64,000 nt of DNA from Eledone cirrhosa (lineage: Eukaryota): positions 276,706,001 to 276,770,000 of the forward strand of contig OZ024741.1 in assembly GCA_964016885.1 (NCBI GenBank), written 5' to 3'. A program made the translations under genes and the position numbers. Each line of letters starts with the position of its first letter. Position 1 is the first letter of the stretch. The notes beneath the pieces are model-generated. The model saw only the letters and a program-made list of their open reading frames with translations, ran no database searches and was not told the DNA's origin. Below are positions 11,332 to 49,937 of the stretch, piece after piece.

Positions 11332-11506
11332 GAGGATAGTAGACGTGTGTCATATCGCTCTGTGATTTGGATTTTTACCTGCTAATTTTGTGAGTGGATT
11401 TTTTTGAATTATTTTGTATAATTAACTGTAACCCCTAGTCTGGGACTCTAGACGTCGGGTAAATATATTTTCACCCCTTTTGGGGTGAAAAATAAATATT
11501 TGAGAA

Positions 11507-13267
11507 ATGTTCATCGATATCGTTGATAACGATATCGTCGAAAACGATATCGCCATATTGGAAGCGAACGCCACGCCGACCAAAAAAACAAGCGGGAAAG
11601 AGGGAACAACAGTTCAAACTGTTGAACAACCCCTCCTCTCCAATGAAAAAAAGAATTTCAATTCAAATGAAAAAATTAATTTTCAAGAAAAAAATAACAC
11701 CACAAATAAGGAAACCAACAACATTACAACAACAAACAAAGACAAAATTTCTTTTGCCCAAACACTCAAGAGAGCCACGGAGTACAAAGCCATTGACATC
11801 ACGAACGCCAAGGAAAATTTGCTAGAGGCTAGAAAATACGTATCTTTTGGGGAGGATGGTTCTTTTACGATCAACTCCCCAGAAGAAGTGCGTGAACAGA
11901 TTTACAAGAATACCGTAAGCTTCAGAACCATAACCAACGAAACGAGAAAGCCAGCGCAATTGACCGAAAGTCAAATCGAGCTGGTTCTGAAAGAAATTAA
12001 AAATGACATACTCTTTATTCAAAGAGGAAAGCTGTATGCCAGCATTATGGTCCGAATGAAGGACGAAATGCTGGCTCAGAAATATTCGGTGGCACCTATA
12101 GTGTCACCACAATACACCTTCTTCCCCACATATAAAGGAAGAAGAACACAAAGGATAAGAATGTGGAGCCCTACGCCAGAAATTAACATCTGGTCCGTCC
12201 TAACAGGATTTACCGACCTAGATAAGGACATACTAATTTCAGCAGGGGAGTCCACCAGTGGACTGTTCGGGGGGAAAAGTCTGGAGGTTCTCTTACAGAT
12301 GACACCTGAGAGAATCTCCGGAATACCCGACCGAGTGCTACTGGATGGGCGAACCTACATAAATATCACAGTGGAAGGCAGGAGACCCTCATGTTACCAC
12401 TGCGCTGGCAGAGGTCACCTGAGGACGGCCTGCCCTCTACTAACAACTAAAAAACCACTGCTACAAACACCACAACAACAACAAAAACAACCAGCACCAC
12501 CATCACAAAAACAACAAAATACACTACCATCTCCACCAGAACAACAAAAACCAACAACACCACCACCACCACCACAACAACAACAACAACAACATCAACA
12601 ACAGCTCAAGAAAACAACCCAAAACACGGTCCCACCCAGCCCCACCCCACAGAACACAAATACAAAAACAGTTCATACACAACCCGGAGATATACCCCTC
12701 CCCTCCAATACGGAAGAGGAGCTCATATCGTCGGAAGACGAGGGGGCTCCCTTCCAAAAAGTGAAAAGAAAAAAACGTACACACACCACAACAACAAAAA
12801 TAACCCCACCTGACAACACAACACAGACAATAAAACGCAAACTCACTCAACAACAACAAGCAAAAACAAACACAACAACACAAAAACTCTACACATACAT
12901 AAACAAAAACAATGAAAACCTAACTTTAAAAATAGAAACCAACCCTTCGATACAAACCGAAGGGCCGAATTTCGTAACGGCATTGGGGCTCCCTAACCTG
13001 AAAATGGTGAAAATCCCACTTGACATTTTTAAAACTTTAAAAGACATGTACCCTGAGGACGTGGGCCCACCCTGCACCAGGCCACTCAACCGCGTCCTCC
13101 TGAAAGGTTTTCCCCTCCCCTCCTCAAACACCCACACAACTCCAAAGATCCCAACCCCTCCACACACCAATACCCCCACACCACCACAAACCACCACCCC
13201 ACCCATCAACCCCGCCACCAGCCCCATGGAAACTGAGCGACCCGAACCCCGGGACGCAGAGAGGTAA
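11507..13267 (+). CDS. ORF1p of A1 (586 aa), gag-like nucleic-acid-binding protein
   Basis: CCHC zinc knuckle CYHCAGRGHLRTAC, Q/P/T-rich linker, conserved C-terminal block; lies upstream of ORF2. Confidence 0.9.
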   Translation: MFIDIVDNDIVENDIAILEANATPTKKTSGKEGTTVQTVEQPLLSNEKKNFNSNEKINFQEKNNTTNKETNNITTTNKDKISFAQTLKRATEYKAIDITNAKENLLEARKYVSFGEDGSFTINSPEEVREQIYKNTVSFRTITNETRKPAQLTESQIELVLKEIKNDILFIQRGKLYASIMVRMKDEMLAQKYSVAPIVSPQYTFFPTYKGRRTQRIRMWSPTPEINIWSVLTGFTDLDKDILISAGESTSGLFGGKSLEVLLQMTPERISGIPDRVLLDGRTYINITVEGRRPSCYHCAGRGHLRTACPLLTTKKPLLQTPQQQQKQPAPPSQKQQNTLPSPPEQQKPTTPPPPPQQQQQQHQQQLKKTTQNTVPPSPTPQNTNTKTVHTQPGDIPLPSNTEEELISSEDEGAPFQKVKRKKRTHTTTTKITPPDNTTQTIKRKLTQQQQAKTNTTTQKLYTYINKNNENLTLKIETNPSIQTEGPNFVTALGLPNLKMVKIPLDIFKTLKDMYPEDVGPPCTRPLNRVLLKGFPLPSSNTHTTPKIPTPPHTNTPTPPQTTTPPINPATSPMETERPEPRDAER

Positions 13268-13269
13268 GT
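13264..13269 (+). promoter_or_regulatory. Consensus 5' splice donor AG|GTAAGT overlapping the ORF1 stop codon
   Basis: GTAAGT also at 18949, 24746, 29755, 38802 and 46208; ATAAGT in decayed copy C (33669). Confidence 0.6.
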
Positions 13270-13290
13270 GCCTCTTTCTTTGCCACCAAC

Positions 13291-16200
13291 ATGGCTGTCT
13301 TAAGAGTGGGTTGTCTAAATGCGCGTGGCCTGGGCTCACCTTGGAAGCAAGCTAAACTTCTAAGTGACCTCAGGTCACAATGTGTAAATGTGATGGTTAT
13401 TTGCGAGGCCCGGATCAGCAGCATGCGACAGCTAACCCCCACCTTTGATGACTTTGAGATGCACGCATCTCTCTGTCAGCCCGGAGGTGGGGGTGGGGTT
13501 GTCGTTCTGCTGCAAAAACATCTGGGTCTCGCTACACAGACGGTACACTTGGACCCGGAGGGTCGACTCGTGGTTCTGGACCTTGGCAATGGCGAAGGCG
13601 AAGCTTTTAGGCTTGTCGCCGTATACGCCCCTTTTGGGGCAATGCGGTCGGACTTCTTCCATCGTCTGGAGACTTTTCTAGGGACGTCCCGCTCCTTGCT
13701 TTTAGTGGGGGACTGGAATGGTATCCTAGATGCACGTTGGGACTATGTAGGGGCATGTCCCGATAGAGGGGGGTGTAACAGCCTTAAGGGGTTAATCGGC
13801 CGATTCGACCTGGCCGATAGATACCGACTAGATTTTCCGACTGTACCAACCTGGACCTGGTCAAATAACAGTGGTCAATCTAGATCGTACCTAGATAGGT
13901 TCTTAGTTAGAATTAAGGATAGGGACTTTTTAAGTTGTCCAGAAATGCTCATGGTGGGCTATTCAGACCACAAGTTAGTGACCTGCGTAGTCCACCTTGA
14001 TAGAACGCATAGGCAGGGGCCCGGTTACTGGAAGCTCAACTTGTCCTTACCGGCAAGTAGAGCTTACAGGGACCGGATTAGAACCTTAGTTAAGGAGCAG
14101 TTGACGGGCGCCATCGTCAACAACAGGTGGTGGGGCTCTCTAAAAAGAGAGATTAGAGTAGTTTCAATAGGAGTTAGTAAGGAGTTAGCCTCAGATAGAA
14201 ATAGGAAGGAAAGGGAGTTGGTAGTTAATGTTGAAGAGGCAATGAGAAGCGGCAACGTGGCCAGAGTGCAAGCGTCGAGAACGGTCTTGAACCAGTTCTT
14301 CGACGCGAAACACGAAGGCTGCGTTGTCCGAAGCAAAATACGTGCTCTGGGAAACGAGGGGACCAAAGCTGTTAGCTGGGCTAGCGTGACAGAAGCGAAA
14401 AGTGGGATTAAATCCACTATCCGGTCTTTGCGAGACCAGGATGGACGGCTGATCCTTGAACCTAAGCAAATGTGCGAGGCCTTTCAAAGGCACTTTGCCG
14501 AATTGTTCGGGAGGGGCGGGGAGCCGGTTGGAGATGTGGATTTCGGTCCATACCTCGACGGCCTGCCGCGTCTTTCGGACAGGGAGGCGAGGTCCTGCGA
14601 CGGGCCGATCTCAGCGGCTGAAATAGGGGACGTGCTGAGCCTATGCGGCAAACGCAAATCTCCAGGACTCGATGGTCTGCCCTACGAACTATATATTAAT
14701 ATGCCGGACTTGTTCCCCGATCTCCTCGAGGCGGTCTACTGCAACTGGCAACAGAACGGGAGAATTCCCTGTTCTGTGACCAAGGGCGTAGTCTCGCTAG
14801 TGAGGAAGGACGAGAACAAGGGGGATGACATTAGTAATTTTAGGCCCATAACTCTGCTAAATGCAGAGTTAAAGATTTTGGCGAAGGTGTTAGCGAAGAG
14901 GTTGGCGCTTGTCGTGGGGGGCCTGGTGGGAGATGCGCAGACATGCGCTATCCCGTCCAGGTCCATCCACGACAACCTCCACCTCATGCGATACATCATA
15001 GGGAGGGTTGGGAACGAACCCGGCTTTGGTGGGGCCCTGATAAATTTAGATCAGTCTAAAGCGTTCGATAGGGTGGACCATGGTTACCTGGATGCGGTGC
15101 TAGCGGCGGCTGGGTTCGGACCCGTTTTCAGGGGCTGGATCACTGCCATGCACAGCAGCCGCATCTGCTCTAGAGTCAAGGTGAACGGCTACCTTTCGGA
15201 GCCGTTCGAAATCACCCGCTCCATCCGACAGGGGTGCCCTCTCTCCTCCCTTCTGTATGTGTTGACTCTCGAGCCATTACTGCGGAAGTTGGAGTTGTTG
15301 CAGGGCATCCCTTTGGAACCGGGATTGCGCAAAGCGGTGTCGGCCTACGCCGATGACGTAACAGTAATGGTGTCGACCGCCTCGGAAATCGAGGCAATCG
15401 GCACCTTACTAGAGGAGTACGAAAGGTTGACAGGGGCTAAGCTGAACCGGGACAAGTCAGTCGCTTTGCAACTCGGCGAGTGGAGGGGCAAAGCGATGTC
15501 GTGCGACGGTATCGTCGGACGGTGGACGGAGGGCCCGGTGAAGTTGCTTGGGGTCTGGTTCGGACCGGACCTCCAGGTGGAGAAAAACTGGGGTGAGGTG
15601 ACGAATAGGGTGTTTGCACTGACCCAGAAGTGGGCCGAGTGCAAACTATCCCTAAAAGGTCGGGCGGAGGTGGCGAACGCTTACATAGCGTCCGTCATCT
15701 ATTACCGCTTGACTGTCGTGCCTTGCCCGGGTGAGATCCTCGCCAAAATGGAGCGCGCCCTCTTTTATTTCCTTTGGAAGAAGAGGTCTCCTCTAGTGAG
15801 GAGATCCATCTGCTGTCAACACCCTTTGAAAGGAGGGCTGGGGATGCCGTGGCTAAAAATGCGTAAACACGCATTGAGGCTAAGGCACCTCCACGTATTC
15901 CTCACCGGTCAACCGGTGTGGGCCCCGTTTGTGAGGCGAGCCTTCCCGAGGCTCGTCTCGCTCACCGAGCTGCAGTCCTGGGTGAAGCAAAGACCGAGAA
16001 AACTGGGCGACTGGCACACCGAGTGTGCCCAGGCGCTCACGGCTCTCTGGCAGGCGGACCCGGCTATCGACGGAGACTCCACCTCGTCATTCTATAGAGG
16101 GCTGGTGGTTAGCGGGTGCGACGACGCCCTCGGAGAAGCCCTAGGCATGGAGGAGGACGAACTGGCCAGTCTATTCGGTAGGACTTTCGGCCCGGGACCT

Positions 16201-16728
16201 ATGGACAACTTCCAGAAGTCCTTGGCCTGGCAGTGCTACCGAGGGGCTCTGCCCGTTCGGGATAAGCTCTACAGACACGGGCGCCCGGGTAGGGACCCCT
16301 CGAAAAAGATCTGTCCCAGATGCGTGCGCGACGAGGAAACCGTCGCGCACGCATTGGTGCACTGCCCGGGCATTGCCGATCTGTGGGGCTATGTCGAACG
16401 ACTGCTGTCACGGGTGGGACCAATTAGGTTGACCACCGAGTCCATTGTAACGATCAAGCCGCCTCCCCCCTTCAAAAATGAAGGAGAGGCGGTCTTCCTC
16501 TGTGTAATAGTCATGGTAAAAGAGGCTATATGGTGGACGCGTCTGAAAGGGCTGAGGTCGGACACCTTTCTCTCCGGCCAACAACTGGTCCTTTTCTTCC
16601 GATACCATTTCGGAAGAAGGATCAGGATGGAGAGAGAGGTGCTCCACTCCAGCCAGTTTTATGAAAGGTGGGTGAAAGTTGCGAGAATGGCCCGTGTGAA
16701 TGGGCCTTCTCTCTACCTCAGCCTGTAG
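13291..16728 (+). CDS. ORF2p of A1 (1145 aa): APE endonuclease + reverse transcriptase + C-terminal CCHC-type motif
   Basis: APE motifs LNARGL, VYAP, GDWN, TW, YLDRF, SDH. RT motifs KSPGLDG, FRPITLLN, LDQSKAFDRV, RQGCPLS, YADD. C-terminal CPRC..ETVAHALVHC. GYWKLN and GGLG motifs are typical of L1/Tx1. Confidence 0.95.
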   Translation: MAVLRVGCLNARGLGSPWKQAKLLSDLRSQCVNVMVICEARISSMRQLTPTFDDFEMHASLCQPGGGGGVVVLLQKHLGLATQTVHLDPEGRLVVLDLGNGEGEAFRLVAVYAPFGAMRSDFFHRLETFLGTSRSLLLVGDWNGILDARWDYVGACPDRGGCNSLKGLIGRFDLADRYRLDFPTVPTWTWSNNSGQSRSYLDRFLVRIKDRDFLSCPEMLMVGYSDHKLVTCVVHLDRTHRQGPGYWKLNLSLPASRAYRDRIRTLVKEQLTGAIVNNRWWGSLKREIRVVSIGVSKELASDRNRKERELVVNVEEAMRSGNVARVQASRTVLNQFFDAKHEGCVVRSKIRALGNEGTKAVSWASVTEAKSGIKSTIRSLRDQDGRLILEPKQMCEAFQRHFAELFGRGGEPVGDVDFGPYLDGLPRLSDREARSCDGPISAAEIGDVLSLCGKRKSPGLDGLPYELYINMPDLFPDLLEAVYCNWQQNGRIPCSVTKGVVSLVRKDENKGDDISNFRPITLLNAELKILAKVLAKRLALVVGGLVGDAQTCAIPSRSIHDNLHLMRYIIGRVGNEPGFGGALINLDQSKAFDRVDHGYLDAVLAAAGFGPVFRGWITAMHSSRICSRVKVNGYLSEPFEITRSIRQGCPLSSLLYVLTLEPLLRKLELLQGIPLEPGLRKAVSAYADDVTVMVSTASEIEAIGTLLEEYERLTGAKLNRDKSVALQLGEWRGKAMSCDGIVGRWTEGPVKLLGVWFGPDLQVEKNWGEVTNRVFALTQKWAECKLSLKGRAEVANAYIASVIYYRLTVVPCPGEILAKMERALFYFLWKKRSPLVRRSICCQHPLKGGLGMPWLKMRKHALRLRHLHVFLTGQPVWAPFVRRAFPRLVSLTELQSWVKQRPRKLGDWHTECAQALTALWQADPAIDGDSTSSFYRGLVVSGCDDALGEALGMEEDELASLFGRTFGPGPMDNFQKSLAWQCYRGALPVRDKLYRHGRPGRDPSKKICPRCVRDEETVAHALVHCPGIADLWGYVERLLSRVGPIRLTTESIVTIKPPPPFKNEGEAVFLCVIVMVKEAIWWTRLKGLRSDTFLSGQQLVLFFRYHFGRRIRMEREVLHSSQFYERWVKVARMARVNGPSLYLSL

Positions 16729-16729
16729 G
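16705..16729 (+). promoter_or_regulatory. Candidate 3' splice acceptor at the end of ORF2 (ccttctctctacctcAG|cctgtAG|g)
   Basis: Pyrimidine tract plus two AGs; equivalent sequence at the ORF2 end of all copies except D, where it is deleted. Confidence 0.5.
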
Positions 16730-16978
16730 TGGAACAGAAAGGAGGGAGCACCCTCTCTTTGTGCTCCCGTGGAGAAGGGTCGCACACTTTTTTCGGGGGT
16801 GTGTGTGACCCCAAAACGATCCCTCCCTATTGAGGACCTTCTTGTTATTATTTTGTTTGTTATATTTTTCTTACTCGATTTTTATGTAAACTCCCCCCAC
16901 CCATGTACATGTCCCTTTCTTTTGTGCCCTAGTGGCAAATAAACAGAAATTTATCTGTCTGCCTATCTGTCCGTCTGA

Positions 16979-17008
<30 letters not shown>

Positions 17009-17009
<1 letters not shown>

Positions 17010-20000
17010 AGTATAGTAGACGTGTGTCATATCGCTCTGTGATTTGGATTTTTACCTGCTATTTTTGTGAGTGGATTTTTTTGAATTCTTTTGTATAATT
17101 AACTGTAACCCCTAGTCTGGGACTCTAGACGTCGGGTAAATATATTTTCACCCCTTTTGGGGTGAAAAATAAATATTTCAGAAATGTTTATCGATATCGT
17201 TGATAACGATATCGTCGAAAACGATATCGCCATATTGGAAGCGAACGCCACGCCGACCAAAAAAACAAGCGGGAAAGAGGGAACAACAGTTCAAACTGTT
17301 GAACAACCCCTCCTCTCCAATGAAAAAAAGAATTTCAATTCAAATGAAAAAATTAATTTTCAAGAAAAAAATAACACCACAAATAAGGAAACCAACAACA
17401 TTACAACAACAAACAAAGACAAAATTTCTTTTGCCCAAACACTCAGGAGAGCCACGGAATACAAAGCCATTGACATCACGAACGCCAAGGAAAATTTGCT
17501 AGAGGCTAGAAAATACGTATCTTTTGGGGAGGATGGTTCTTTTACGATCAACTCCCCAGAAGAAGTACGTCAACAGATTTACAAGAATACCGTAAGCTAC
17601 AGAACCATAACCAACGAAACGAGAAAGCCAGCGCAATTGACCGAAAGTCAAATCGAGCTGGTTCTTAAAGAAATTAAAAATGACATACTCTTTATTCAAA
17701 GAGGAAAGCTGTATGCCAGCATTATGGTCCGAATGAAGGACGAAATGCTGGCTCAGAAATATTCGGTGGCACCTATAGTGTCACCACAATACACCTTCTT
17801 CCCCACATATAAAGGAAGAAGAACACAAAGGATAAGAATGTGGAGCCCTACGCCAGAAATTAACATCTGGTCCGTCCTAACAGGATTTACCGATCTAGAT
17901 AAGGACATACTAATTTCAGCAGGGGAGTCCACCAGTGGACTGTTCGGCGGGAAAAGTCTGGAGGTTCTCTTACAGATGACACCTGAGAGAATCTCCGGAA
18001 TACCCGACCGAGTGCTACTGGATGGGCGAACCTACATAAATATCACAGTGGAAGGCAGGAGACCCTCATGTTACCACTGCGCTGGCAGAGGTCACCTGAG
18101 GACGGCCTGCCCTCTACTAACAACTAAAAAACCACTGCTACAAACACCACAACAACAACAAAAACAACCAGCACCACCATCACAAAAACAACAAAATACA
18201 CTACCATCTCCACCAGAACAACAAAAACCAACAACACCACCACCACCACCACCACCACAACAACAACAACAACAACAACATCAACAACAGCTCAAGAAAA
18301 CAACCCAAAACACGGTCCCACCCAGCCCCACCCACAGAACACAAATACAAAAACAGTTCATACACAACCCGGAGATATACCCCTCCCCTCCAATACGGAA
18401 GAGGAGCTCATATCGTCGGAAGACGAGGGGGCTCCCTTCCAAAAAGTGAAAAGAAAAAAACGTACACACACCACAACAACAAAAATAACCCCACCTGACA
18501 ACATAACACAGACAATAAAACGCAAACTCACTCAACAACAGCAAGCAAAAACAAACACAACAACACAAAAACTCTACACATACATAAACAAAAACAATGA
18601 AAACCTAACTTTAAAAATAGAAACCAACCCTTCGATACAAACCGAAGGGCCGAATTTCGTAACGGCAATGGGGCTCCCTAACCTGAAAATGGTGAAAATC
18701 CCACTTGACATTTTCAAAACTTTAAAAGACATGTACCCTGAGGACGTGGGCCCACCCTGCACCAGGCCACTCAACCGCGTCCTCCTGAAATGTTTTCCCC
18801 TCCCCTCCTCAAACACCCACACAACTCCAAAGATCCCAACCCCTCCACACACTAATACCCCCACACCACCACAAACCACCACCCCACCCATCAACCCCGC
18901 CACCAGCCCCATGGAAACTGAGCGACCCGAACCCCGGGACGCAGAGAGGTAAGTGCCTCTTTCTTTGCCACCAACATGGCTGTCTTAAGAGTAGGTTGTC
19001 TAAATGCGCGTGGCCTGGGCTCACCTTGGAAGCAAGCTAAACTTCTAAGTGACCTCAGGTCACAATGTGTAAATGTGATGGTTATTTGCGAGGCCCGGAT
19101 CAGCAGCATGCGACAGCTAACCCCCACCTTTGATGACTTTGAGATGCACGCATCTCTCTGTCAGCCTGGAGGTGGGGGTGGGGTTGTCGTTCTGCTGCAA
19201 AAACATCTGGGTCTCGCTACACAGACGGTACACTTGGACCCGGAGGGTCGACTCGTGGTTCTGGACCTTGGCAATGGCGAAGGCGAAGCTTTTAGGCTTG
19301 TCGCCGTATACGCCCCTTTTGGGGCAATGCGGTCGGACTTCTTCCATCGTCTGGAGACTTTTCTAGGGACGTCCCGCTCCTTGCTTTTAGTGGGGGACTG
19401 GAATGGTATCCTAGATGCACGTTGGGACTATGTAGGGGCATGTCCCGATAGAGGGGGGTGTAACAGCCTTAAGGGGTTAATCGGCCGATTCGACCTGGCC
19501 GATAGATACCGACTAGATTTTCCGACTGTACCAACCTGGACCTGGTCAAATAACAGTGGTCAATCTAGATCGTACCTAGATAGGTTCTTAGTTAGAATTA
19601 AGGATAGGGACATTTTAAGTTGTCCAGAAATGCTCATGGTGGGCTATTCAGACCACAAGTTAGTGACCTGCGTAGTCCACCTTGATAGAACGCATAGGCA
19701 GGGGCCCGGTTACTGGAAGCTCAACTTGTCCTTACCGGCAAGTAGAGCTTACAGGGACCGGATTAGAACCTTAGTTAAGGAGCAGTTGACGGGCGCCATC
19801 GTCAACAACAGGTGGTGGGGCTCTCTAAAAAGAGAGATTAGAGTAGTTTCAATAGGAGTTAGTAAGGAGTTAGCCTCAGATAGAAATAGGAAGGAAAGGG
19901 AGTTGGTAGTTAATGTTGAAGAGGCAATGAGAAGCGACAACGTGGCCAGAGTGCAAGCGTCGAGAACGGTCTTGAACCAGTTCTTCGACGCGAAACACGA

Positions 20001-22637
20001 AGGCTGCGTTGTCCGAAGCAAAATACGTGCTCTGGGAAACGAGGGGACCAAAGCTGTTAGCTGGGCCCGCGTGACAGAAGCGAAAAGTGGAATTAAATCC
20101 ACTATCCGGTCTTTGCGAGACCAGGATGGACGGCTGATCCTTGAACCTAAGCAAATGTGCGAGGCCTTTCAAAGGCACTTTGCCCAATTGTTCGGGAGGG
20201 GCGGGGAGCCGGTTGGAGATGTGGATTTCGGTCCATACCTCGACGGCCTGCCGCGTCTTTCGGACAGGGAGGCGAGGTCCTGCGACGGGCCGATCTCAGC
20301 TGCTGAAATAGGGGACGTGCTGAGCCTATGCGGCAAACGCAAATCTCCAGGACTCGATGGTCTGCCCTACGAACTATATATTAATATGCCGGACTTGTTC
20401 CCCGATCTCCTCGAGGCGGTCTACTGCAACTGGCAACAGAACGGGAGAATTCCCTGTTCTGTGACCAAGGGCGTAGTCTCGCTAGTGAGGAAGGACGAGA
20501 ACAAGGGGGATGACATTAGTAATTTTAGGCCCATAACTCTGCTAAATGCAGAGTTAAAGATTTTGGCGAAGGTGTTAGCGAAGAGGTTGGCGCTTGTCGT
20601 GGGGGGCCTGGTGGGAGATGCGCAGACATGCGCTATCCCGTCCAGGTCCATCCACGACAACCTCCACCTCATGCGATACATCATAGAGAGGGTTGGGAAG
20701 GAACCCGGCTTTGGTGGGGCCCTGATAAATTTAGATCAGTCTAAAGCGTTCGATAGAGTGGACCATGGTTACCTGGATGCGGTGCTAGCGGCGGCTGAGT
20801 TCGGACCCGTTTTCAGGGGCTGGATCACTGCCATGCACAGCAGCCGCATCTGCTCTAGAGTCAAGGTGAACGGCTACCTTTCGGAGCCGTTCGAAATCAC
20901 CCGCTCCATCCGACAGGGGTGCCCTCTCTCCTCCCTTCTGTATGTGTTGACTCTCGAGCCATTACTGCGGAAGTTGGAGTTGTTGCAGGGCATCCCTTTG
21001 GAACCGGGATTGCGCAAAGCGGTGTCGGCCTACGCCGATGACGTAACAGTAATGGTGTCGACCGCCTTGTAAATCGAGGCAATCGGCACCTTACTAGAGG
21101 AGTACGAAAGGTTGACAGGGGCTAAGCTGAACCGGGACAAGTCAGTCGCTTTGCAACTCGGCGAGTGGAGGGGCAAAGCGATGTCGTGCGACGGTATCGT
21201 CGGACGGTGGACGGAGGGCCCGGTGAAGTTGCTTGGGGTCTGGTTCGGACCGGACCTCCAGGTGGAGAAAAACTGGGGTGAGGTGACGAATAGGGTGTTT
21301 GCACTGACCCAGAAGTGGGCCGAGTGCAAACTATCCCTAAAAGGTCGGGCGGAGGTGGCGAACGCTTACATAGCGTCCGTCATCTATTACCGCTTGACTG
21401 TCGTGCCTTGCCCGGGTGAGATCCTCGCCAAAATGGAGCGCGCCCTCTTTTATTTCCTTTGGAAGAAGAGGTCTCCTCTAGTGAGGAGATCCATCTGCTG
21501 TCAACACCCTTTGAAAGGAGGGCTGGGGATGCCGTGGCTAAAAATGCGTAAACACGCATTGAGGCTAAGGCACCTCCACGTATTCCTCACCGGTCAACCG
21601 GTGTGGGCCCCGTTTGTGAGGCGAGCCTTCCCGAGGCTCGTCTCGCTCACCGAGCTGCAGTCCTGGGTGAAGCAAAGACCGAGAAAACTGGGCGACTGGC
21701 ACACCGGGTGTGCCCAGGCGCTCACGGCTCTCTGGCAGGCGGACCCGGCTATCGACGGAGACTCCACCTCGTCATTCTATAGAGGGCTGGTGGTTAGCGG
21801 GTGCGACGACGCCCTCGGAGAAGCCCTAGGCATGGAGGAGGACGAACTGGCCAGTCTATTCGGTAGGACTTTCGGCCCGGGACCTATGGACAACTTCCAG
21901 AAGTCCTTGGCCTGGCAGTGCTACCGAGGGGCTCTGCCCGTTCGGGATAAGCTCTACAGACACGGGCGCCCGGGTAGGGACCCCTCGAAAAAGATCTGTC
22001 CCAGATGCGTGCGCGACGAGGAAACCGTCGCGCACGCATTGGTGCACTGCCCGGGCGTTGCCGATCTGTGGGGCTATGTCGAACAACTGCTGTCACGGGT
22101 GGGACCAATTAGGTTGACCACCGAGTCCATTGTAACGATCAAGCCGCCTCCCCCCTTCAAAAATGAAGGAGAGGCGGTCTTCCTCTGTGTAATAGCCATG
22201 GTAAAAGAGGCTATATGGTGGACGCGTCTGAAAGGGCTGAGGTCGGACACCTTTCTCTCCGGCCAACAACTGGTCCTTTTCTTCCGATACCATTTCGGAA
22301 GAAGGATCAGGATGGAGAGAGAGGTGCTCCACCCCAGCCAGTTTTATGAAAGGTGGGTGAAAGTTGCGAGAATGGCCCGTGTGAATGGGCCTTCTCTCTA
22401 CCTCAGCCTGTAGGTGGAACAGAAAGGAGGGAGCACCCTCTCTTTGTGCCCCCGTGGAGAAGGGTCGCAGACTTTTTTCGGGGGTGTGTGTGACCCCAAA
22501 ACGATCCCTCCCTATTGAGGACCTTCTTGTTATTATTTTGTTTGTTATATTTTTCTTACTCGATTTTTATGTAAACTCCCCCCACCCATGTACATGTCCC
22601 TTTCTTTTGTGCCCTAGTGGCAAATAAACAGAAATTT
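17009..22637 (+). mobile_element. Full-length Tx1-like copy A2 (near-identical to A1), defective
   Basis: ORF1 17184-18952 with a 1-nt deletion near 18330; ORF2 18976-22413 with an in-frame TAA at 21070-21072. Confidence 0.95.
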
Positions 22638-22775
22638 GTCTGCCTATCTGTCTGCCTATCTGTCCGTCTGACTGTCTGTCTGCCTATCTGTCTGACTGTC
22701 TGTCTGCCTATCTGTCCGTCTGACTGTTTGTCTGACTGTTTGTCTGCCTATCTGTCTGCCTATCTGTCCGTCTGA

Positions 22776-22805
<30 letters not shown>

Positions 22806-22806
<1 letters not shown>

Positions 22807-25800
22807 AGGATAGTAGACGTGTGTCATATCGCTCTGTGATTTGGATTTTTACCTGCTATTTTTGTGAGTGGATTTTTTTGAATTCTTTTGTATAATTAAC
22901 TGTAACCCCTAGTCTGGGACTCTAGACGTCGGGTAAATATATTTTCACCCCTTTTGGGGTGAAAAATAAATATTTCAGAAATGTTTATCGATATCGTTGA
23001 TAACGATATCGTCGAAAACGATATCGCCATATTGGAAGCGAACGCCACGCCGACCAAAAAAACAAGCGGGAAAGAGGGAACAACAGTTCAAACTGTTGAA
23101 CAACCCCTCCTCTCCAATGAAAAAAAGAATTTCAATTCAAATGAAAAAATTAATTTTCAAGAAAAAAATAACACCACAAATAAGGAAACCAACAACATTA
23201 CAACAACAAACAAAGACAAAATTTCTTTTGCCCAAACACTCAGGAGAGCCACGGAATACAAAGCCATTGACATCACGAACGCCAAGGAAAATTTGCTAGA
23301 GGCTAGAAAATACGTATCTTTTGGGGAGGATGGTTCTTTTACGATCAACTCCCCAGAAGAAGTACGTCAACAGATTTACAAGAATACCGTAAGCTACAGA
23401 ACCATAACCAACGAAACGAGAAAGCCAGCGCAATTGACCGAAAGTCAAATCGAGCTGGTTCTTAAAGAAATTAAAAATGACATACTCTTTATTCAAAGAG
23501 GAAAGCTGTATGCCAGCATTATGGTCCGAATGAAGGACGAAATGCTGGCTCAGAAATATTCGGTGGCACCTATAGTGTCACCACAATACACCTTCTTCCC
23601 CACATATAAAGGAAGAAGAACACAAAGGATAAGAATGTGGAGCCCTACGCCAGAAATTAACATCTGGTCCGTCCTAACAGGATTTACCGACCTAGATAAG
23701 GACATACTAATTTCAGCAGGGGAGTCCACCAGTGGACTGTTCGGCGGGAAAAGTCTGGAGGTTCTCTTACAGATGACACCTGAGAGAATCTCCGGAATAC
23801 CCGACCGAGTGCTACTGGATGGGCGAACCTACATAAATATCACAGTGGAAGGCAGGAGACCCTCATGTTACCACTGCGCTGGCAGAGGTCACCTGAGGAC
23901 GGCCTGCCCTCTACTAACAACTAAAAAACCACTGCTACAAACACCACAACAACAACAAAAACAACCAGCACCACCATCACAAAAACAACAAAATACACTA
24001 CCATCTCCACCAGAACAACAAAAACCAACAACACCACCACCACCACCGCCACAACAACAACAACAACAACAACAACATCAACAACAGCTCAAGAAAACAA
24101 CCCAAAACACGGTCCCACCCAGCCCCACCCACAGAACACAAATACAAAAACAGTTCATACACAACCCGGAGATATACCCCTCCCCTCCAATACGGAAGAG
24201 GAGCTCATATCGTCGGAAGACGAGGGGGCTCCCTTCCAAAAAGTGAAAAGAAAAAAACGTACACACACCACAACAACAAAAATAACCCCACCTGACAACA
24301 TAACACAGACAATAAAACGCAAACTCACTCAACAACAGCAAGCAAAAACAAACACAACAACACAAAAACTCTACACATACATAAACAAAAACAATGAAAA
24401 CCTAACTTTAAAAATAGAAACCAACCCTTCGATACAAACCGAAGGGCCGAATTTCGTAACGGCAATGGGGCTCCCTAACCTGAAAATGGTGAAAATCCCA
24501 CTTGACATTTTCAAAACTTTAAAAGACATGTACCCTGTGGACGTGGGCCCACCCTGCACCAGGCCACTCAACCGCGTCCTCCTGAAATGTTTTCCCCTCC
24601 CCTCCTCAAACACCCACACAACTCCAAAGATCCCAACCCCTCCACACACTAATACCCCCACACCACCACAAACCACCACCCCACCCATCAACCCCGCCAC
24701 CAGCCCCATGGAAACTGAGCGACCCGAACCCCGGGACGCAGAGAGGTAAGTGCCTCTTTCTTTGCCACCAACATGGCTGTCTTAAGAGTAGGTTGTCTAA
24801 ATGCGCGTGGCCTGGGCTCACCTTGGAAGCAAGCTAAACTTCTAAGTGACCTCAGGTCACAATGTGTAAATGTGATGGTTATTTGCGAGGCCCGGATCAG
24901 CAGCATGCGACAGCTAACCCCCACCTTTGATGACTTTGAGATGCACGCATCTCTCTGTCAGCCTGGAGGTGGGGGTGGGGTTGTCGTTCTGCTGCAAAAA
25001 CATCTGGGTCTCGCTACACAGACGGTACACTTGGACCCGGAGGGTCGACTCGTGGTTCTGGACCTTGGCAATGGCGAAGGCGAAGCTTTTAGGCTTGTCG
25101 CCGTATACGCCCCTTTTGGGGCAATGCGGTCGGACTTCTTCCATCGTCTGGAGACTTTTCTAGGGACGTCCCGCTCCTTGCTTTTAGTGGGGGACTGGAA
25201 TGGTATCCTAGATGCACGTTGGGACTATGTAGGGGCATGTCCCGATAGAGGGGGGTGTAACAGCCTTAAGGGGTTAATCGGCCGATTCGACCTGGCCGAT
25301 AGATACCGACTAGATTTTCCGACTGTACCAACCTGGACCTGGTCAAATAACAGTGGTCAATCTAGATCGTACCTAGATAGGTTCTTAGTTAGAATTAAGG
25401 ATAGGGACTTTTTAAGTTGTCCAGAAATGCTCATGGTGGGCTATTCAGACCACAAGTTAGTGACCTGCGTAGTCCACCTTGATAGAACGCATAGGCAGGG
25501 GCCCGGTTACTGGAAGCTCAACTTGTCCTTACCGGCAAGTAGAGCTTACAGGGACCGGATTAGAACCTTAGTTAAGGAGCAGTTGACGGGCGCCATCGTC
25601 AACAACAGGTGGTGGGGCTCTCTAAAAAGAGAGATTAGAGTAGTTTCAATAGGAGTTAGTAAGGAGTTAGCCTCAGATAGAAATAGGAAGGAAAGGGAGT
25701 TGGTAGTTAATGTTGAAGAGGCAATGAGAAGCGACAACGTGGCCAGAGTGCAAGCGTCGAGAACGGTCTTGAACCAGTTCTTCGACGCGAAACACGAAGG

Positions 25801-28433
25801 CTGCGTTGTCCGAAGCAAAATACGTGCTCTGGGAAACGAGGGGACCAAAGCTGTTAGCTGGGCCCGCGTGACAGAAGCGAAAAGTGGGATTAAATCCACT
25901 ATCCGGTCTTTGCGAGACCAGGATGGACGGCTGATCCTTGAACCTAAGCAAATGTGCGAGGCCTTTCAAAGGCACTTTGCCCAATTGTTCGGGAGGGGCG
26001 GGGAGCCGGTTGGAGATGTGGATTTCGGTCCATACCTCGACGGCCTGCCGCATCTTTCGGACAGGGAGGCGAGGTCCTGCGACGGGCCGATCTCAGCTGC
26101 TGAAATAGGGGACGTGCTGAGCCTATGCGGCAAACGCAAATCTCCAGGACTCGATGGTCTGCCCTACGAACTATATATTAATATGCCGGACTTGTTCCCC
26201 GATCTCCTCGAGGCGGTCTACTGCAACTGGCAACAGAACGGGAGAATTCCCTGTTCTGTGACCAAGGGCGTAGTCTCGCTAGTGAGGAAGGACGAGAACA
26301 AGGGGGATGACATTAGTAATTTTAGGCCCATAACTCTGCTAAATGCAGAGTTAAAGATTTTGGCGAAGGTGTTAGCGAAGAGGTTGGCGCTTGTCGTGGG
26401 GGGCCTGGTGGGAGATGCGCAGACATGCGCTATCCCGTCCAGGTCCATCCACGACAACCTCCACCTCATGCGATACATCATAGAGAGGGTTGGGAACGAA
26501 CCCGGCTTTGGTGGGGCCCTGATAAATTTAGATCAGTCTAAAGCGTTCGATAGGGTGGACCATGGTTACCTGGATGCGGTGCTAGCGGCGGCTGGGTTCG
26601 GACCCGTTTTCAGGGGCTGGATCACTGCCATGCACAGCAGCCGCATCTGCTCTAGAATCAAGGTGAACGGCTACCTTTCGGAGCCGTTCGAAATCACCCG
26701 CTCCATCCGACAGGGGTGCCCTCTCTCCTCCCTTCTGTATGTATTGACTCTCGAGCCATTACTGCGGAAGTTGGAGTTGTTGCAGGGCATCCCTTTGGAA
26801 CCGGGATTGCGCAAAGCGGTGTCGGCCTACGCCGATGACGTAACAGTAATGGTGTCGACCGCCTCGGAAATCGAGGCAATCGGCACCTTACTAGAGGAGT
26901 ACGAAAGGTTGACAGGGGCTAAGCTGAACCGGGACAAGTCAGTCGCTTTGCAACTCGGCGAGTGGAGGGGCAAAGCGATGTCGTGCGACGGTATCGTCGG
27001 ACGGTGGACGGAGGGCCCGGTGAAGTTGCTTGGGGTCTGGTTCGGACCGGACCTCCAGGTGGAGAAAAACTGGGGTGAGGTGACGAATAGGGTGTTTGCA
27101 CTGACCCAGAAGTGGGCCGAGTGCAAACTATCCCTAAAAGGTCGGGCGGAGGTGGCGAACGCTTACATAGCGTCCGTCATCTATTACCGCTTGACTGTCG
27201 TGCCTTGCCCGGGTGAGATCCTCGCCAAAATGGAGCGCGCCCTCTTTTATTTCCTTTGGAAGAAGAGGTCTCCTCTAGTGAGGAGATCCATCTGCTGTCA
27301 ACACCCTTTGAAAGGAGGGCTGGGGATGCCGTGGCTAAAAATGCGTAAACACGCATTGAGGCTAAGGCACCTCCACGTATTCCTCACCGGTCAACCGGTG
27401 TGGGCCCCGTTTGTGAGGCGAGCCTTCCCGAGGCTCGTCTCGCTCACCGAGCTGCAGTCCTGGGTGAAGCAAAGACCGAGAAAACTGGGCGACTGGCACA
27501 CCGAGTGTGCCCAGGCGCTCACGGCTCTCTGGCAGGCGGACCCGGCTATCGACGGAGACTCCACCTCGTCATTCTATAGAGGGCTGGTGGTTAGCGGATG
27601 CGACGACGCCCTCGGAGAAGCCCTAGGCATGGAGGAGGACGAACTGGCCAGTCTATTCGGTAGGACTTTCGGCCCGGGACCTATGGACAACTTCCAGAAG
27701 TCCTTGGCCTGGCAGTGCTACCGAGGGTTCTGCCCGTTCGGGATAAGCTCTACAGACACGGGCGCCCGGGTAGGGACCCCTCGAAAAAGATCTGTCCCAG
27801 ATGCGTGCGCGACGAGGAAACCGTCGCGCACGCATTGGTGCACTGCCCAGGCGTTGCCGATCTGTGGGGCTATGTTGAACAACTGCTGTCACGGGTGGGA
27901 CCAATTAGGTTGACCACCGAGTCCATTGTAACGATCAAGCCGCCTCCCCCCTTCAAAAATGAAGGAGAGGCGGTCTTCCTCTGTGTAATAGCCATGGTAA
28001 AAGAGGCTATATGGTGGACGCGTCTGAAAGGGCTGAGGTCGGACACCTTTCTCTCCGGCCAGCAACTGGTCCTTTTCTTCCGATACCATTTCGGAAGAAG
28101 GATCAGGATGGAGAGAGAGGTGCTCCACTCCAGCCAGTTTTATGAAAGGTGGGTGAAAGTTGCGAGAATGGCCCGTGTGAATGGGCCTTGTCTCTACCTC
28201 AGCCTGTAGGTGGAACAGAAAGGAGGGAGCACCCTCTCTTTGTGCTCCCGTGGAGAAGGGTCGCACACTTTTTTCGGGGGTGTGTGTGACCCCAAAACGA
28301 TCCCTCCCTATTGAGGATCTTCTTGTTATTATTTTGTTTGTTATATTTTTCTTACTCGATTTTTATGTAAACTCCCCCCACCCATGTACATGTCCCTTTC
28401 TTTTGTGCCCTAGTGGCAAATAAACAGAAATTT
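22806..28433 (+). mobile_element. Full-length Tx1-like copy A3, defective
   Basis: ORF1 22981-24749 with the same frameshift as A2 (~24128); ORF2 24773-28209 with a frameshift near 27726. Confidence 0.95.
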
Positions 28434-45893: not shown

Positions 45894-48800
45894 ATAAAAA
45901 CACAAGGGCCTAACTTCACCCAGGCAGGGGATTTCCCCCACCTCAAAATGATTAAGGCCCCACAGGACACCTATAAAACTTTAAAAAACAATTTTAAAGA
46001 GGACGTGGGTCCCCCCTGCGTCGGGCCCATTAACCGCGTCCTCCTAAAAAACTATCCCACCCCCTCCCCAAACACCCTCACAACTCCAAGCTCCCCAACC
46101 ACACAACACACTGATGCCCCCACACTTCCACAAACCACCACCCCACCCAACAACCCATCCCCCACCCTAATGGAAATTGTGCAGCCCGATACCCGGGACG
46201 CAGAGAGGTAAGTGCCTTTTCTCTTCACCACCAACATGGCTATGCTAAGAGTAGGCTGTTTAAATGCGCGTGGCCTGGGCTCAACTTGGAAGCAAGCAAT
46301 GCTTCTAAATGACCTCAGGTCACAACGTATAGATGTGATGGTTATTTGCGAGGCCCGGATCAGCAACGTGCGACAGCTGGCCCCCACCTTTGATGACTTT
46401 GAGATGCACGCATCTCTCTGTCAGCCCGGAGGTGGGGGTGGAGTTGTCGTTCTGCTGCAAAAACATCTGGGTCTCGCAACACAGATGGTACATTTGGACC
46501 CGGAGGGTCGACTAGTGGTTCTGGACCTTGGCAGTGGTAAAGGCGGAGCGTTTAGGTTGGTAGCCGCCTACGGCCCTTTCGGGTCAATGCGGCCGGACTT
46601 CTTCCATCGTCTGGAGACTTTTCTAGGGACGTCCCGCTCCTTGCTATTAGTGGGGGACTGGAATGGTATCCTAGATGCACGCTGGGACTACGTAGGGGCC
46701 TGCCCCGATAGAGAGGGGTGTAATAGCCTCAAAGGGTTAATCGGTCGATTTGACCTGGCCGATAGATATCGACTAGATTTTCCGACTGCGCCAACCTGGA
46801 CTTGGGCAAATCGTAGCGGATCATCTAGGTCGTACCTAGATAGGTTCTTAGTTAGAATTAAGGATAAGGACTTTTTAAGTTGTCCAAAAATGCGCATTGT
46901 TGGCTATTCAGACCACAAATTAGTGACCTGCATGGTCAACCTTGACAGAACTCATAGACAGGGCCCCGGTTACTGGAAGCTCAACTTGTCCTTGCCGGCA
47001 AGTAGAGCCTACAGGAATCGGATTAGTACGTTAGTTAAGGAACGGTTGACTGGAGCGATCGTCAACAGCAGGTGGTGGGTATCTCTAAAGAGAGAGATTA
47101 GAGTAGTCTCGATAGAATTTAGTAAGGTTCTAGCTGCGGATAGGAATAGGAAGGAAAGGGAGCTAATAGATAGAGTAGAAGAGGCAATTAGAAGCGGCGA
47201 CGTGGCCAGAGTGCTAGCGTCGAGAACGGCTTTGAGCCAGTTTTTCGACGCGAAGCACGAAGGCTGCGTTGTCCGAAGTAAAATACGTGCTCTAGGGAAC
47301 GAGGGGACCAAAGCTGTTAGCTGGGCCCGCGTGACAGAGGCCAACAGTGGAACTAAATCCACCATCCGGTCTTTGCGAGACCTGGATGGACGGGCGATTC
47401 TTGAGCCTAAGCAGATGTGTGAGGCCTTTCAAAGGCACTTTGCCCGACTGTTCGGGAGGGGCGGGGAGCCGGTTGGGAACGTGGACTTCGGTCCATACCT
47501 CGACGGCCTGCCGCGCCTCTCGGACAGGGAGGCGAAGTCCTGCGAAGAGCCGATTTCGGCCGCTGAGATAGAGGACGTGCTGAGCCAATGCGGCAAACGC
47601 AAATCCCCGGGTCTCGATGGTCTTCCTTACGAATTATATCTAGCTATGCCGGACTTGTTCCCCGATCTCCTCGAGGCGGTCTACTGCAACTGGCAACAGA
47701 ACGGGAGAATTCCCTGTACTGTGACCAAGGGCGTAGTCACGCTAGTGAGGAAGGACGAGAACAAGGGGGACGAAATAAGTAACTTCAGGCCCATAACACT
47801 GCTAAATACAGAGTTACAGATTTTGGCCAAGGTGCTAGCAAAGAGGTTGGCGCTTGTCGTGGGCAACCTGGTGGGAGATGCGCAGACATGCGCTATCCCG
47901 TCCAGGTCCATCCATGACAACCTCCACCTCATGCGATACATCATAGAGAGGGTTGGGAACGAACCCGGCTTTGGTGGGGCTCTGATCAACTTGGATCAAT
48001 CTAAGGCGTTCGATAGGGTCGACCATGGTTACCTGGATGCGGTGCTAGCGGCGGCAGGCTTCGGACCCGTTTTCAGGGGCTGGATCACTGCTATGCACAG
48101 CAGCCGCATCTGCTCTAGGGTCAAGGTGAACGGCTACCTCTCGGAGCCGTTCAAAATCGCGCGGTCCATCCGACAAGGGTGCCCTCTCTCCTCCCTTCTG
48201 TATGTGTTGACTCTCGAGCCACTACTGCGGAAGTTGGAGTTGTTGCAGGGCATCCCTTTGGAACCGGGATTGCGGAAAGCGGTGTCGGCCTACGCCGATG
48301 ACGTGACAGTAATGGTGTCGACGGCCTCCGAAATCGAGGCGGTCGGCACCTTACTGGAGGAGTACGAAAAGTTCACAGGGGCTAAGCTGAACCGGGACAA
48401 GTCGATCGGTTTGCAACTCGGCACGTGGAGGGGCAGACCGATGCCCTCCGATAGCGTCGTCGGACGCTGGACGGAGGGCCCGGTGAAGTTGCTCGGGGTC
48501 TGGTTCGGACCGGACCTCCAGGTGGAGAAAAACTGGGCGGAGGTTACGAACAGGGTGTTTGCACTGACCCAGAAGTGGGCCAGTTGCAAACTATCCCTGA
48601 AAGGCCGGGCGGAGGTGGCGAACACCTACATAGCGTCCGTCATCTACTACCGCCTGACCGTAGTGCCCTGCCCAAGGGAAACCCTCACCAAGATGGAGCG
48701 CGCGCTCTTCCAATTCCTTTGGAAGAGGCGGGCTCCTATGGTGAGGAGATCCATCTGCTGTCAACACCCTTCGAAAGGAGGGCTGGGGATGCCGTGGCTA

Positions 48801-49937
48801 ATGATGCGTAAACACGCATTAAGGCTACGGCACCTCTACGTATTCCTCACCGGACAACCGGTGTGGGCCTCGTTTGTGAGACGAACCTTTCCCAGACTCG
48901 TCTCACTCACCGAGCTGCAATCCTGGGTCAAGCAAAGACCGAGAAAACTGGGCGCCTGGCACACTGAGTGTGCCCAGGCGCTCACCGCCCTCTGGCAGGC
49001 GGATCCGGTTATCAGTGGAGACTCCACCGCAACATTCTATAGAGGGCTGGTACGCAGCAGGTGCGACGACGCCCTCGGAGAAGCCCTAGACATGGAGGAG
49101 GACGAACTGGCCAGCCTGTTCGGTAGGACATTCAGCCCGGGACCTATGGACAACTTCCAGAAGTCCCTGGCCTGGCAGTGCTACCGAGGGGCTTTACCCG
49201 TTCGAGAAAGGCTCTACAGACACGGGCGCCCGGGTAGGGACCCCGCCAAAAAGATCTGTCCCAGATGCGTGTGCGACGAGGAAACCGTTGCACACGCATT
49301 AGTACACTGCTCGGGCGTAGCCGATCTGTGGGGCTATGTCGAACAACTGCTGTCAAGGGTGGGACCGATCCGGTTGACCACCGAGTCTATTGTAATGATC
49401 AAGCCGCCTCCCCCCTTCAAAGATGAAGCAGAGGCGGTGTTTCTGTGCGTAATAGCCATGGCGAAAGAGGTTGTATGGTGGACGCGTCTGAAAGGACTGA
49501 GGTCGGGCACCTTTCTCTCTGGCCAACAACTGGTCCGTTTCTTCCGATATCATTTCGGAAGAAGGATCAGGATGGAGAGAGAGGTGCTGCACCCCAGCCG
49601 TTTCTATGAAAGATGGGTGAAAGTGGCGAGAATGGCCCGTGTGAATGGGCCTTCACTCTACATCAGACTATAGGTGAGGAAGATGAAAGACCAAGGGAGC
49701 ACCCCTTCTCTGTGCTCCTGAGGAGAAGGGTTGCACACTTTTTTCGGGGGTGTGTGCGACCCCCCAAGGCGCCTCCTCTCTATTGAGGATTTTGTTAAAA
49801 ATTTTATTTTTTGTTATATCTTATTTTATTTTTATATTTTGTTATTGCCTCCTCCTTATTGAGGACGCCTTTTTGTGTAAACTCCCCCCTTTGTACTTGT
49901 CCCACTTTTGATGCCCTAGTGGCAAATAAAAGAAATA
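45894..49937 (+). mobile_element. Tx1-like copy G, truncated in the ORF1 C-terminus, ORF2 intact
   Basis: ORF1 tail IKTQGPNF...RDAER* (46211); flanked by (TATC)n on both sides. Confidence 0.92.
46236..49673 (+). CDS. ORF2p of copy G (1145 aa from the ATG at 46236): APE + RT + CCHC-type motif
   Basis: Uninterrupted, collinear with and the same length as A1 ORF2; ccaacATGG start context. Confidence 0.92.
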   Translation: MAMLRVGCLNARGLGSTWKQAMLLNDLRSQRIDVMVICEARISNVRQLAPTFDDFEMHASLCQPGGGGGVVVLLQKHLGLATQMVHLDPEGRLVVLDLGSGKGGAFRLVAAYGPFGSMRPDFFHRLETFLGTSRSLLLVGDWNGILDARWDYVGACPDREGCNSLKGLIGRFDLADRYRLDFPTAPTWTWANRSGSSRSYLDRFLVRIKDKDFLSCPKMRIVGYSDHKLVTCMVNLDRTHRQGPGYWKLNLSLPASRAYRNRISTLVKERLTGAIVNSRWWVSLKREIRVVSIEFSKVLAADRNRKERELIDRVEEAIRSGDVARVLASRTALSQFFDAKHEGCVVRSKIRALGNEGTKAVSWARVTEANSGTKSTIRSLRDLDGRAILEPKQMCEAFQRHFARLFGRGGEPVGNVDFGPYLDGLPRLSDREAKSCEEPISAAEIEDVLSQCGKRKSPGLDGLPYELYLAMPDLFPDLLEAVYCNWQQNGRIPCTVTKGVVTLVRKDENKGDEISNFRPITLLNTELQILAKVLAKRLALVVGNLVGDAQTCAIPSRSIHDNLHLMRYIIERVGNEPGFGGALINLDQSKAFDRVDHGYLDAVLAAAGFGPVFRGWITAMHSSRICSRVKVNGYLSEPFKIARSIRQGCPLSSLLYVLTLEPLLRKLELLQGIPLEPGLRKAVSAYADDVTVMVSTASEIEAVGTLLEEYEKFTGAKLNRDKSIGLQLGTWRGRPMPSDSVVGRWTEGPVKLLGVWFGPDLQVEKNWAEVTNRVFALTQKWASCKLSLKGRAEVANTYIASVIYYRLTVVPCPRETLTKMERALFQFLWKRRAPMVRRSICCQHPSKGGLGMPWLMMRKHALRLRHLYVFLTGQPVWASFVRRTFPRLVSLTELQSWVKQRPRKLGAWHTECAQALTALWQADPVISGDSTATFYRGLVRSRCDDALGEALDMEEDELASLFGRTFSPGPMDNFQKSLAWQCYRGALPVRERLYRHGRPGRDPAKKICPRCVCDEETVAHALVHCSGVADLWGYVEQLLSRVGPIRLTTESIVMIKPPPPFKDEAEAVFLCVIAMAKEVVWWTRLKGLRSGTFLSGQQLVRFFRYHFGRRIRMEREVLHPSRFYERWVKVARMARVNGPSLYIRL

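Follow-up and report, generated by a model that had tools for sequence, protein, structure and literature searches.

We analyze a 64,000-nucleotide stretch of the genome of Eledone cirrhosa (assembly GCA_964016885.1, contig OZ024741.1, positions 276,706,001 to 276,770,000, forward strand; hereafter, the window), a nest of L1/Tx1-type long interspersed elements (LINEs) sitting in microsatellites. In its full-length element A1, as throughout the 18 families that we compared, a 5′ splice-site sequence lies at the end of open reading frame 1 (ORF1), and the sequence from there into the start of ORF2 is complementary to the end of ORF2, ~3.4 kb away. Judged from sequence, this donor is real and selected, and the complementarity co-varies between families; the long-range helix that it predicts we call the zipper. 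The original prediction had placed ORF2 in a spliceosomal intron running from a donor at the ORF1 stop to an acceptor at the ORF2 stop; that acceptor is not universal, and the pairing over donor, ORF2 start codon and acceptor is an addition to it. We tentatively propose a LINE lineage in which the whole reverse transcriptase gene may lie inside a regulated intron, and in which a co-evolving 3.4-kb zipper with an anti-donor strand would switch between a spliced ORF1-only mRNA and an unspliced genomic RNA, a retrovirus-like balance in a non-LTR (long terminal repeat) element.

The features of A1 discussed below are these, in window positions (a slash marks the exon boundary):

11332..16952, + strand: element A1, full-length L1/Tx1-type LINE with both ORFs open; ends judged by eye at the repeat borders
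11507..13267, + strand: ORF1, 586 amino acids (aa), one CCHC knuckle, ending Arg-stop (TAA)
13251..13312, + strand: predicted 5′ strand of the zipper (ORF1 end, donor, spacer, ORF2 start); duplex −59.7 kcal/mol
13261..13269, + strand: 5′ splice-site consensus GAG/GTAAGT overlapping the ORF1 stop, phase 2
13268..13290, + strand: inter-ORF spacer, 23 nt, pyrimidine-rich, AG-free, with a conserved CCAAC just before the ORF2 ATG
13291..16728, + strand: ORF2, 1145 aa, with APE endonuclease, reverse transcriptase and zf-RVT
16703..16764, + strand: predicted 3′ strand of the zipper (ORF2 end, stop, early 3′ untranslated region, UTR)
16705..16721, + strand: pyrimidine tract and candidate acceptor 1 (CAG, phase 2; AG ends at 16721), rank 1-2 of 104 YAG sites by pyrimidine count
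16726..16728, + strand: stop codon of ORF2 (TAG, as in 17/18 families) and candidate acceptor 2; phase-1 families have no other fitting YAG
16744..16768, + strand: local 3′ UTR hairpin, a fold alternative to the zipper; the strand that could pair with the donor and the end of ORF1 makes up its arms and loop
16938..16943, + strand: AATAAA poly(A) signal, directly 5′ of the microsatellite

For the family comparison, 60 stretches were picked for diversity; the 44 with a continuous ORF2 were retained and the 16 without one were dropped. With L076 set aside as a chimera, the remaining loci and four window copies gave 18 families, whose labels were assigned by eye, whose ORF2 DNA identity falls as low as 0.687, and whose tree has two clades (I, 12 families; II, 6 families). 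Family B was kept among them though possibly chimeric, as it pairs better with the 3′ end of another family, and T13 (L091) stands outside the 18 owing to an internal deletion.

A conserved splice donor at the end of ORF1

The exon side of the A1 donor ends at 13263, and GTAAGT starts at 13264. The ORF ends, the donor and both AGs (16721 and 16728) lie where the original prediction placed them, and GTAAGT recurs, as it said, at the same place in A2 (18949), A3 (24746), B (29755), D (38802) and G (46208), with ATAAGT in C (33669). The expectation that the donor would be more conserved than its neighbours was also borne out: measured against the general 5′ splice-site consensus, five positions (−1G, +1G, +2T, +5G and +6T) are invariant in 18/18 families and −2A is kept in 16, as against 6-14 of 18 families at the flanking positions −15 to −3 and +7 to +12 (the exception is +13, in the spacer, which is T in 18/18). 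Positions +3 and +4 vary mostly among purines, giving GTAAGT, GTGAGT or GTAGGT; T22, a single copy, has T at +4. As background, G/GTRRGT occurs 21 times in 61,393 nt of ORF2, so that finding its invariant positions at the ORF1 end of all 18 families exceeds chance.

The stop codon falls within or just past the donor and is TAA, TGA or TAG depending on the family. ORF1 crosses the donor in phase 2 in 12 families, with an Arg-stop end, and in phase 1 in the other 6, which mostly end Gly-Lys-stop; in either phase it lies no more than two codons from where ORF1 ends. In the phase-1 families +2T and +5G are third codon positions, whereas in the phase-2 families +5 and +6 are non-coding. Because the donor is kept across both phases, no single coding constraint explains it. 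The claim that the donor and the first AG are both in phase 2 holds in A and fails as a general rule, the donor being in phase 1 in 6/18 families. That the donor is a U1-type site under nucleotide-level selection is well supported by these comparisons; the 5′ splice-site consensus of a U2-type intron is present and conserved.

A metagenome scan for more distant elements, made with an alignment, returned 71 loci, of which 31 were examined and 28 had a readable ORF1 end. No such donor was found at the ORF1 end in 27 of these 28 L1-type loci, which argues that it is a lineage trait and not a by-product of stop codons. The remaining locus, L175, has G/GTGAGT two codons before its ORF1 stop, which is compatible with chance. 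The only ORF1 relative found among annotated proteins is P0001 (603 aa, from another source), which is 27-32% identical and, at the level of the protein only, ends Gln-Gly-Lys like the phase-1 families. It sits on a 2,209-bp contig, near the 2,168 nt predicted for an ORF1-only transcript of A1, and the contig is possibly a fragment. Searching annotated proteins with an alignment added no further one. A metagenome scan with P0003 gave no matches.

Complementarity between the two ends of ORF2

Within A1's own RNA, the junction region finds its best partner in the ORF2 stop region (−54.3 vs −45.6 elsewhere). The complementarity extends across the donor and both the start and the stop codon of ORF2; it is family-specific and co-varies. 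When the two strands of each family were compared with partners swapped between families, the families' own pairing stood out even when restricted to non-coding sequence (12 of 100,000 permutations), and for the whole zipper none of 100,000 permutations did as well (worst p 0.002 when seven lineages are taken). The donor segment, −12 to +8, pairs with 3′ UTR positions +19 to +58, and here too own beats swapped (0 of 100,000; with one family from each of seven lineages, the exact p has a median of 0.003 and a worst value of 0.015). The facing strand follows the donor variant, with ACTCAC opposite GTGAGT (T10), ACCTAC opposite GTAGGT (T1) and CACTTGC opposite GTAAGTG (T2, C), and in P, T6 and T21 it follows the ORF1 end. 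Of the nine donor positions, only 3-9 are paired.

The pairing keeps a fixed register around the AUG and the stop, with 184/252 cells paired versus 56-101 when the strands are slid, and this register accounts for the invariant Leu-stop end of ORF2 and for part of the acceptor's look. Formation of the helix in RNA is a prediction from folding models, and a competing fold is predicted as well: in A and several other families the anti-donor strand lies within a local hairpin, which at 16744..16768 is the local minimum in A and ~7/18 families, other families folding otherwise.

Candidate acceptors at the end of ORF2

The acceptor side is more heterogeneous between the clades. An AG in the penultimate codon is found in 12/12 clade-I families (CAG in 9, AAG in 3) versus 0/6 in clade II, where the codon is CGC, CGT, CGG or TAT; the claim that this codon stays AGN was thus right for the window's own clade, 12/12, and wrong for its sister, 0/6. 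The Ser-to-Arg change at this codon is weak evidence because a single third-position change produces it. In the nine clade-I families with CAG, acceptor 1 ranks 1-5 of ~110 YAG sites by pyrimidine count.

Use of an AG 7 nt before the end of the stop would reuse the ORF2 stop codon in 11/12 phase-2 families. In the phase-1 families a stop lies within two codons of the TAG in 6/6; the corresponding figures are 2/12 when these families are read in their other phases and 4.6% for randomly chosen 3′ UTR positions. Taken over both phases, a YAG or AAG at the ORF2 stop or 7 nt before it would end ORF1 within two codons, in the family's own phase, in 17/18 families, so ORF1 could end cleanly after splicing. 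The original expectation, that splicing would end ORF1 on the ORF2 stop itself in each subfamily, survives as an end near that stop in these 17 families and breaks down in T2, which has TAA, and in T13. An acceptor beside the poly(A) signal was considered and rejected, as the AG is absent in B, C, T9 and T10. In T2, an ATTAAA hexamer lies directly 3′ of the TAA stop, inside the predicted zipper.

A proposed two-state switch and its competitors

The model that we favour, with a probability of roughly 0.45, is a two-state RNA switch: in the open state ORF2 would be spliced out to leave an ORF1-only mRNA, and in the zipped state masking of the splice sites would leave the RNA at full length. U1 would load on the donor during transcription of the 3.4-kb ORF2 and, once the 3′ strand emerges, acceptor recognition and zipper closure would compete. 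The extra ORF1p would come from the spliced product (~2,168 nt for A1). Retrotransposition would use the zipped RNA as its template, with the poly(A) tail folded near the ORF1 stop and the ORF2 AUG opened only by ribosomes completing ORF1. We infer U1 binding, splicing and the effects on translation and decay from the arrangement of these signals. Since the helix would bury the donor, the AUG and both AGs, it should oppose splicing, not guide it; and an element that evolves a strand covering its own donor is likely to have a donor that works.

Several results weigh against the switch. The pairing owes part of its strength to pyrimidine-versus-purine composition, the shuffle Z for the non-coding pairing ranging from −0.3 to −4.0 and being weak, at −1.0, in A. 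The zipper appears in the predicted global fold of 13/17 families (with 35 pairs in G), although these folds had no shuffled control and the sequences ended near both strands, which favours such pairing; it does not appear in the global fold of A (whole A1 too), T12, T18 or T24. Family A also shows the smallest gain from the zipper, −16.4 kcal/mol compared with −24 to −37 elsewhere, so that it combines the weakest zipper with one of the best acceptors. At the acceptor end, acceptor 2 ranks only 6-45 of ~100-130 YAG sites by pyrimidine count in clade II, and the six phase-1 families amount to only about three lineages. T2, whose ORF2 ends on TAA, has no fitting YAG and only a GAG 13 nt upstream, and of the first 100 among 9,005 clade-II ends, a count by eye assigns about half to it. 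T2 also retains a stop-like triplet 3′ of the ORF2 stop, and there the triplet co-varies with the spacer, which means that the in-phase stop could be a by-product of the zipper; more generally, pairing with the ORF2 start would also explain much of the acceptor's look. T13, a nineteenth and older family, has a weaker donor, CAG/GTAATT, with T at +5; it has no near stop after its TAG and no fitting YAG, again only a GAG 13 nt upstream. The branch-point motif yTnAy is not enriched 15-45 nt upstream of the acceptors (2/18 families, background 0.19-0.30), a weak test because animal branch points are degenerate.

Genomic traces of splicing are likewise missing at the places searched. Seven donor-side searches with exact patterns, which left T6, T14 and T21 outside their coverage, found 87 ORF1 ends with some other sequence after them (14 and 7 for A/G/T8/T18, 1 for T1, 32 for T2, 0 for P, 2 for T9/T10, 7 for C/D and 24 for T12/T17). 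In none of the 85 viewed (30 of the 32 for T2) is ORF1 joined to the ORF2 end; these odd junctions are point-decayed copies or small deletions, set beside 1,427 genomic copies with intact A/G-type donors. An acceptor-side search returned 0 spliced joins versus 132 intact A ends. We rejected two loci as splice products: L135, where the ORF1 end is joined to about residue 133 of ORF2 at a short shared sequence with no AG, and L231, a short deletion within the spacer. The suggestion that splicing spawns HAL1-like ORF1-only elements is not supported for recent copies, with no ORF2-less copy at these sites in the families searched. On splicing itself the missing copies say little, because the cis-preference of the LINE machinery leaves an RNA without ORF2 dependent on rare trans-mobilisation (PMC5860796, in the part of the text available) and makes such copies rare. 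In the contigs of runs X1, X2, X4 and X5, none of the 15 joints listed (of 111) over 12850-16950 is at the predicted sites, and since contigs drop rare forms we draw no inference from this. In X4, an 88 Mb contig set, the ORF1 end and ORF2 are covered to nearly the same depth, which is not so in X1 and X2; contig depth cannot show expression.

A close rival, which we consider a serious possibility if a less probable one, keeps U1 at the donor without any excision of ORF2. U1 would protect or speed transcription through ORF2, and the zipper would displace it after 3′-end formation, a checkpoint for the export of full-length RNA. The zipper would also limit initiation at ORF2 and, by placing the poly(A) tail close to the ORF1 stop, let the bicistronic RNA escape nonsense-mediated decay (NMD). 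This fits T2 better than the switch does, as T2 pairs a strong donor and a strong zipper with no acceptor, and it suits the absence of a branch-point signal and of spliced copies at the junctions viewed. It has parallels in the accessible text of earlier reports: U1 at the donor of the EVD retrotransposon also blocks premature termination (PMC5580714), a poly(A) tail folded near a stop suppresses NMD (PMC2689704), and translation of SART1 ORF2 needs structure downstream of its stop-start site (PMC5972666). There would be little to protect, however, as ORF2 carries just 0-2 AATAAA/ATTAAA hexamers per family, and U1 binding alone leaves unexplained why, in either phase, the donor is no more than two codons away from the end of ORF1 and why donor phase and acceptor position match in 17/18 families.

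The fixed AUG/stop register and the Leu-stop end that it explains would also suit a zipper that functions alone, in translation coupling or RNA stability, with a donor-like look inherited from the one common ancestor of all 18 families and constrained by pairing and by the final sense codon and stop of ORF1. We think this unlikely: the facing strand, the stop codon and the phase all differ between families where five positions of the donor do not, and donor positions are only partly paired, whereas paired positions elsewhere co-vary freely. Least probable of the alternatives, and in our view improbable, is that the donor is used with some other acceptor, through a short ORF1-ORF2 fusion intron, an internal ORF2 site or a downstream host exon. 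A and G have a phase-2 AG 14 nt into ORF2, most clade-I families have a strong YAG ~3,020 nt before the stop, and the T13 spacer contains a YAG; but the short intron would be only 41-42 nt in A and G, the matching AG is in phase 1 in B, C and D, the T13 YAG is out of frame with ORF2, and no candidate is conserved in both clades. We rejected the fusion intron outright for its length and its unconserved phase. As the original prediction described, the inter-ORF spacers are 23-41 nt long with no AG after the stop (0/7). The T13 spacer (L091, L277-L288) has a pyrimidine run whose terminal TAG lies five bases upstream of the ORF2 ATG, and it reads as a 47-nt mini-intron; several of these copies carry T2-type 3′ ends. 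Between these readings, the zipper is the better supported structural fact and the intron is plausible but unproven.

Elements and copies in the window and the genome

A1 is the first of three tandem A copies and lies between (TCTG)-type microsatellites. The other copies in the window compare as follows:

18946..22413, + strand: copy A2, donor and ORF2 end as in A1; ORF1 frameshifted, ORF2 with one stop
24743..28209, + strand: copy A3, donor and ORF2 end as in A1; frameshifts in ORF1 and late ORF2
46205..49673, + strand: copy G, donor as in A1, ORF2 open, Arg-Leu-stop end

As expected of an L1/Tx1-type LINE, A1 has an ORF2 with APE, RT and zinc-finger domains, a separate ORF1 with a CCHC knuckle, a short spacer and a poly(A) signal. 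In Pfam searches of ORF2, PF03372 and PF00078 exceed the cut-off and PF13966 falls slightly under it (25.8 vs 27.5 bits); ORF1 has no Pfam match, and its CCHC knuckle was read directly from the protein. Simple repeats lie 3′ of the elements in the window and of most family representatives, a target preference that is a Tx1-clade trait; the Tx1 label itself is provisional and carried over from the original prediction. Clade I elements are followed by (TATC)/(TCTG) repeats and those of clade II (T2, T6, T12, P) by (TTA) repeats, so target preference appears to have split along with the clades.

A degenerate ORF2-start pattern has 11,246 matches in the 3.0 Gb genome. The A subfamily has 132 exact 3′ ends genome-wide, many in tandem at ~5.7 kb: at window positions 11332-28400 and at 358.73-358.78 Mb of C3 (G000), near-identical A copies lie head-to-tail, ~5.6-5.8 kb apart with short microsatellites between them, nine in a row in the C3 array. 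Some copies are chimeric, combining the 5′ junction of one family with a different family's 3′ end (L076; B at window positions 29755-33203; L277, L280, L281, L284 and L288), which suggests inter-family recombination or template switching. A second hairpin in the 3′ UTR, with GGGT...ACCC arms at about 16775-16812, is recognisable in most window families and could be a recognition signal for ORF2p. The best matches to P0007 in this genome are at 41% (a ~40% relative family).

Relation to known systems

The nearest precedent would be the spliced gag RNA of copia elements; our LINE may work likewise but is not a member of that group. In the published text that was accessible, EVD of Arabidopsis (Ty1/Copia) makes a spliced subgenomic RNA, shGAG, and resembles our elements in that the structural ORF is followed by a conserved U1-type donor, itself better conserved than the acceptor, that splicing yields an mRNA encoding only the structural protein (predicted here), and that U1 has a second role outside splicing (proposed here) (PMC5580714). 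EVD, by contrast, is an LTR element with a short intron coupled to premature termination, and its splicing has been demonstrated (PMC5580714). In our elements the predicted intron spans the whole of ORF2, the 3′ UTR would remain in the mRNA, and the splice sites would be hidden by a long-range helix.

Among LINEs, human L1 RNA has functional splice sites, those here being candidates; according to the sections available, the SpORF2 and SpIRE forms lose the 5′ UTR or ORF1, are called dead ends, and can be retroposed (PMC2896524, PMC5860796). The signals here instead flank ORF2 and are conserved across families, and no retroposed spliced copy was found at the searched junctions. Kibi and Koshi (PMC4494074) and the L1-Tx1 elements of Octopus vulgaris (PMC13282606) share, in the parts of both reports that we could draw on, the two ORFs, the APE-RT-zinc finger ORF2, insertion in simple repeats, and tandem arrays. 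Our elements, provisionally placed in the Tx1 clade, differ in their (TATC)/(TCTG) and (TTA) targets. The main text on O. vulgaris describes active L1-Tx1 families without mention of splicing, and its accessible parts do not mention long-range pairing (PMC13282606), and the accessible text on Kibi and Koshi mentions neither splicing nor long-range pairing (PMC4494074). In SART1/L1 termination-reinitiation, as the available text describes it, ORF2 is likewise reached from a bicistronic RNA over a short spacer with RNA structure implicated; in SART1 the structure is local, after an overlapping stop-start, whereas here the partner strand is 3.4 kb away (PMC5972666).

An ORF1-only RNA, if retroposed, would be expected to leave a genomic copy like the half-L1 HAL1; at the junctions searched here there is no such copy. 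We found no report of a LINE with an ORF2-spanning intron or with pairing between the two ends of ORF2, in a search that did not extend to subscription journals, Repbase Reports or supplements.

LINEs need far more ORF1p than ORF2p, and the ratio is thought to be due to inefficient reinitiation on one bicistronic RNA. A lineage with >11,000 ORF2 starts that keeps a donor and a co-evolving helix points to another solution of the ratio problem, by splicing or by structure-gated translation together with escape from surveillance. Either of these leading models would be new for LINEs as far as the literature search reaches. If one of them is true, the host would gain a handle on the mobility of these elements through its splicing factors, helicases and RNA editing.

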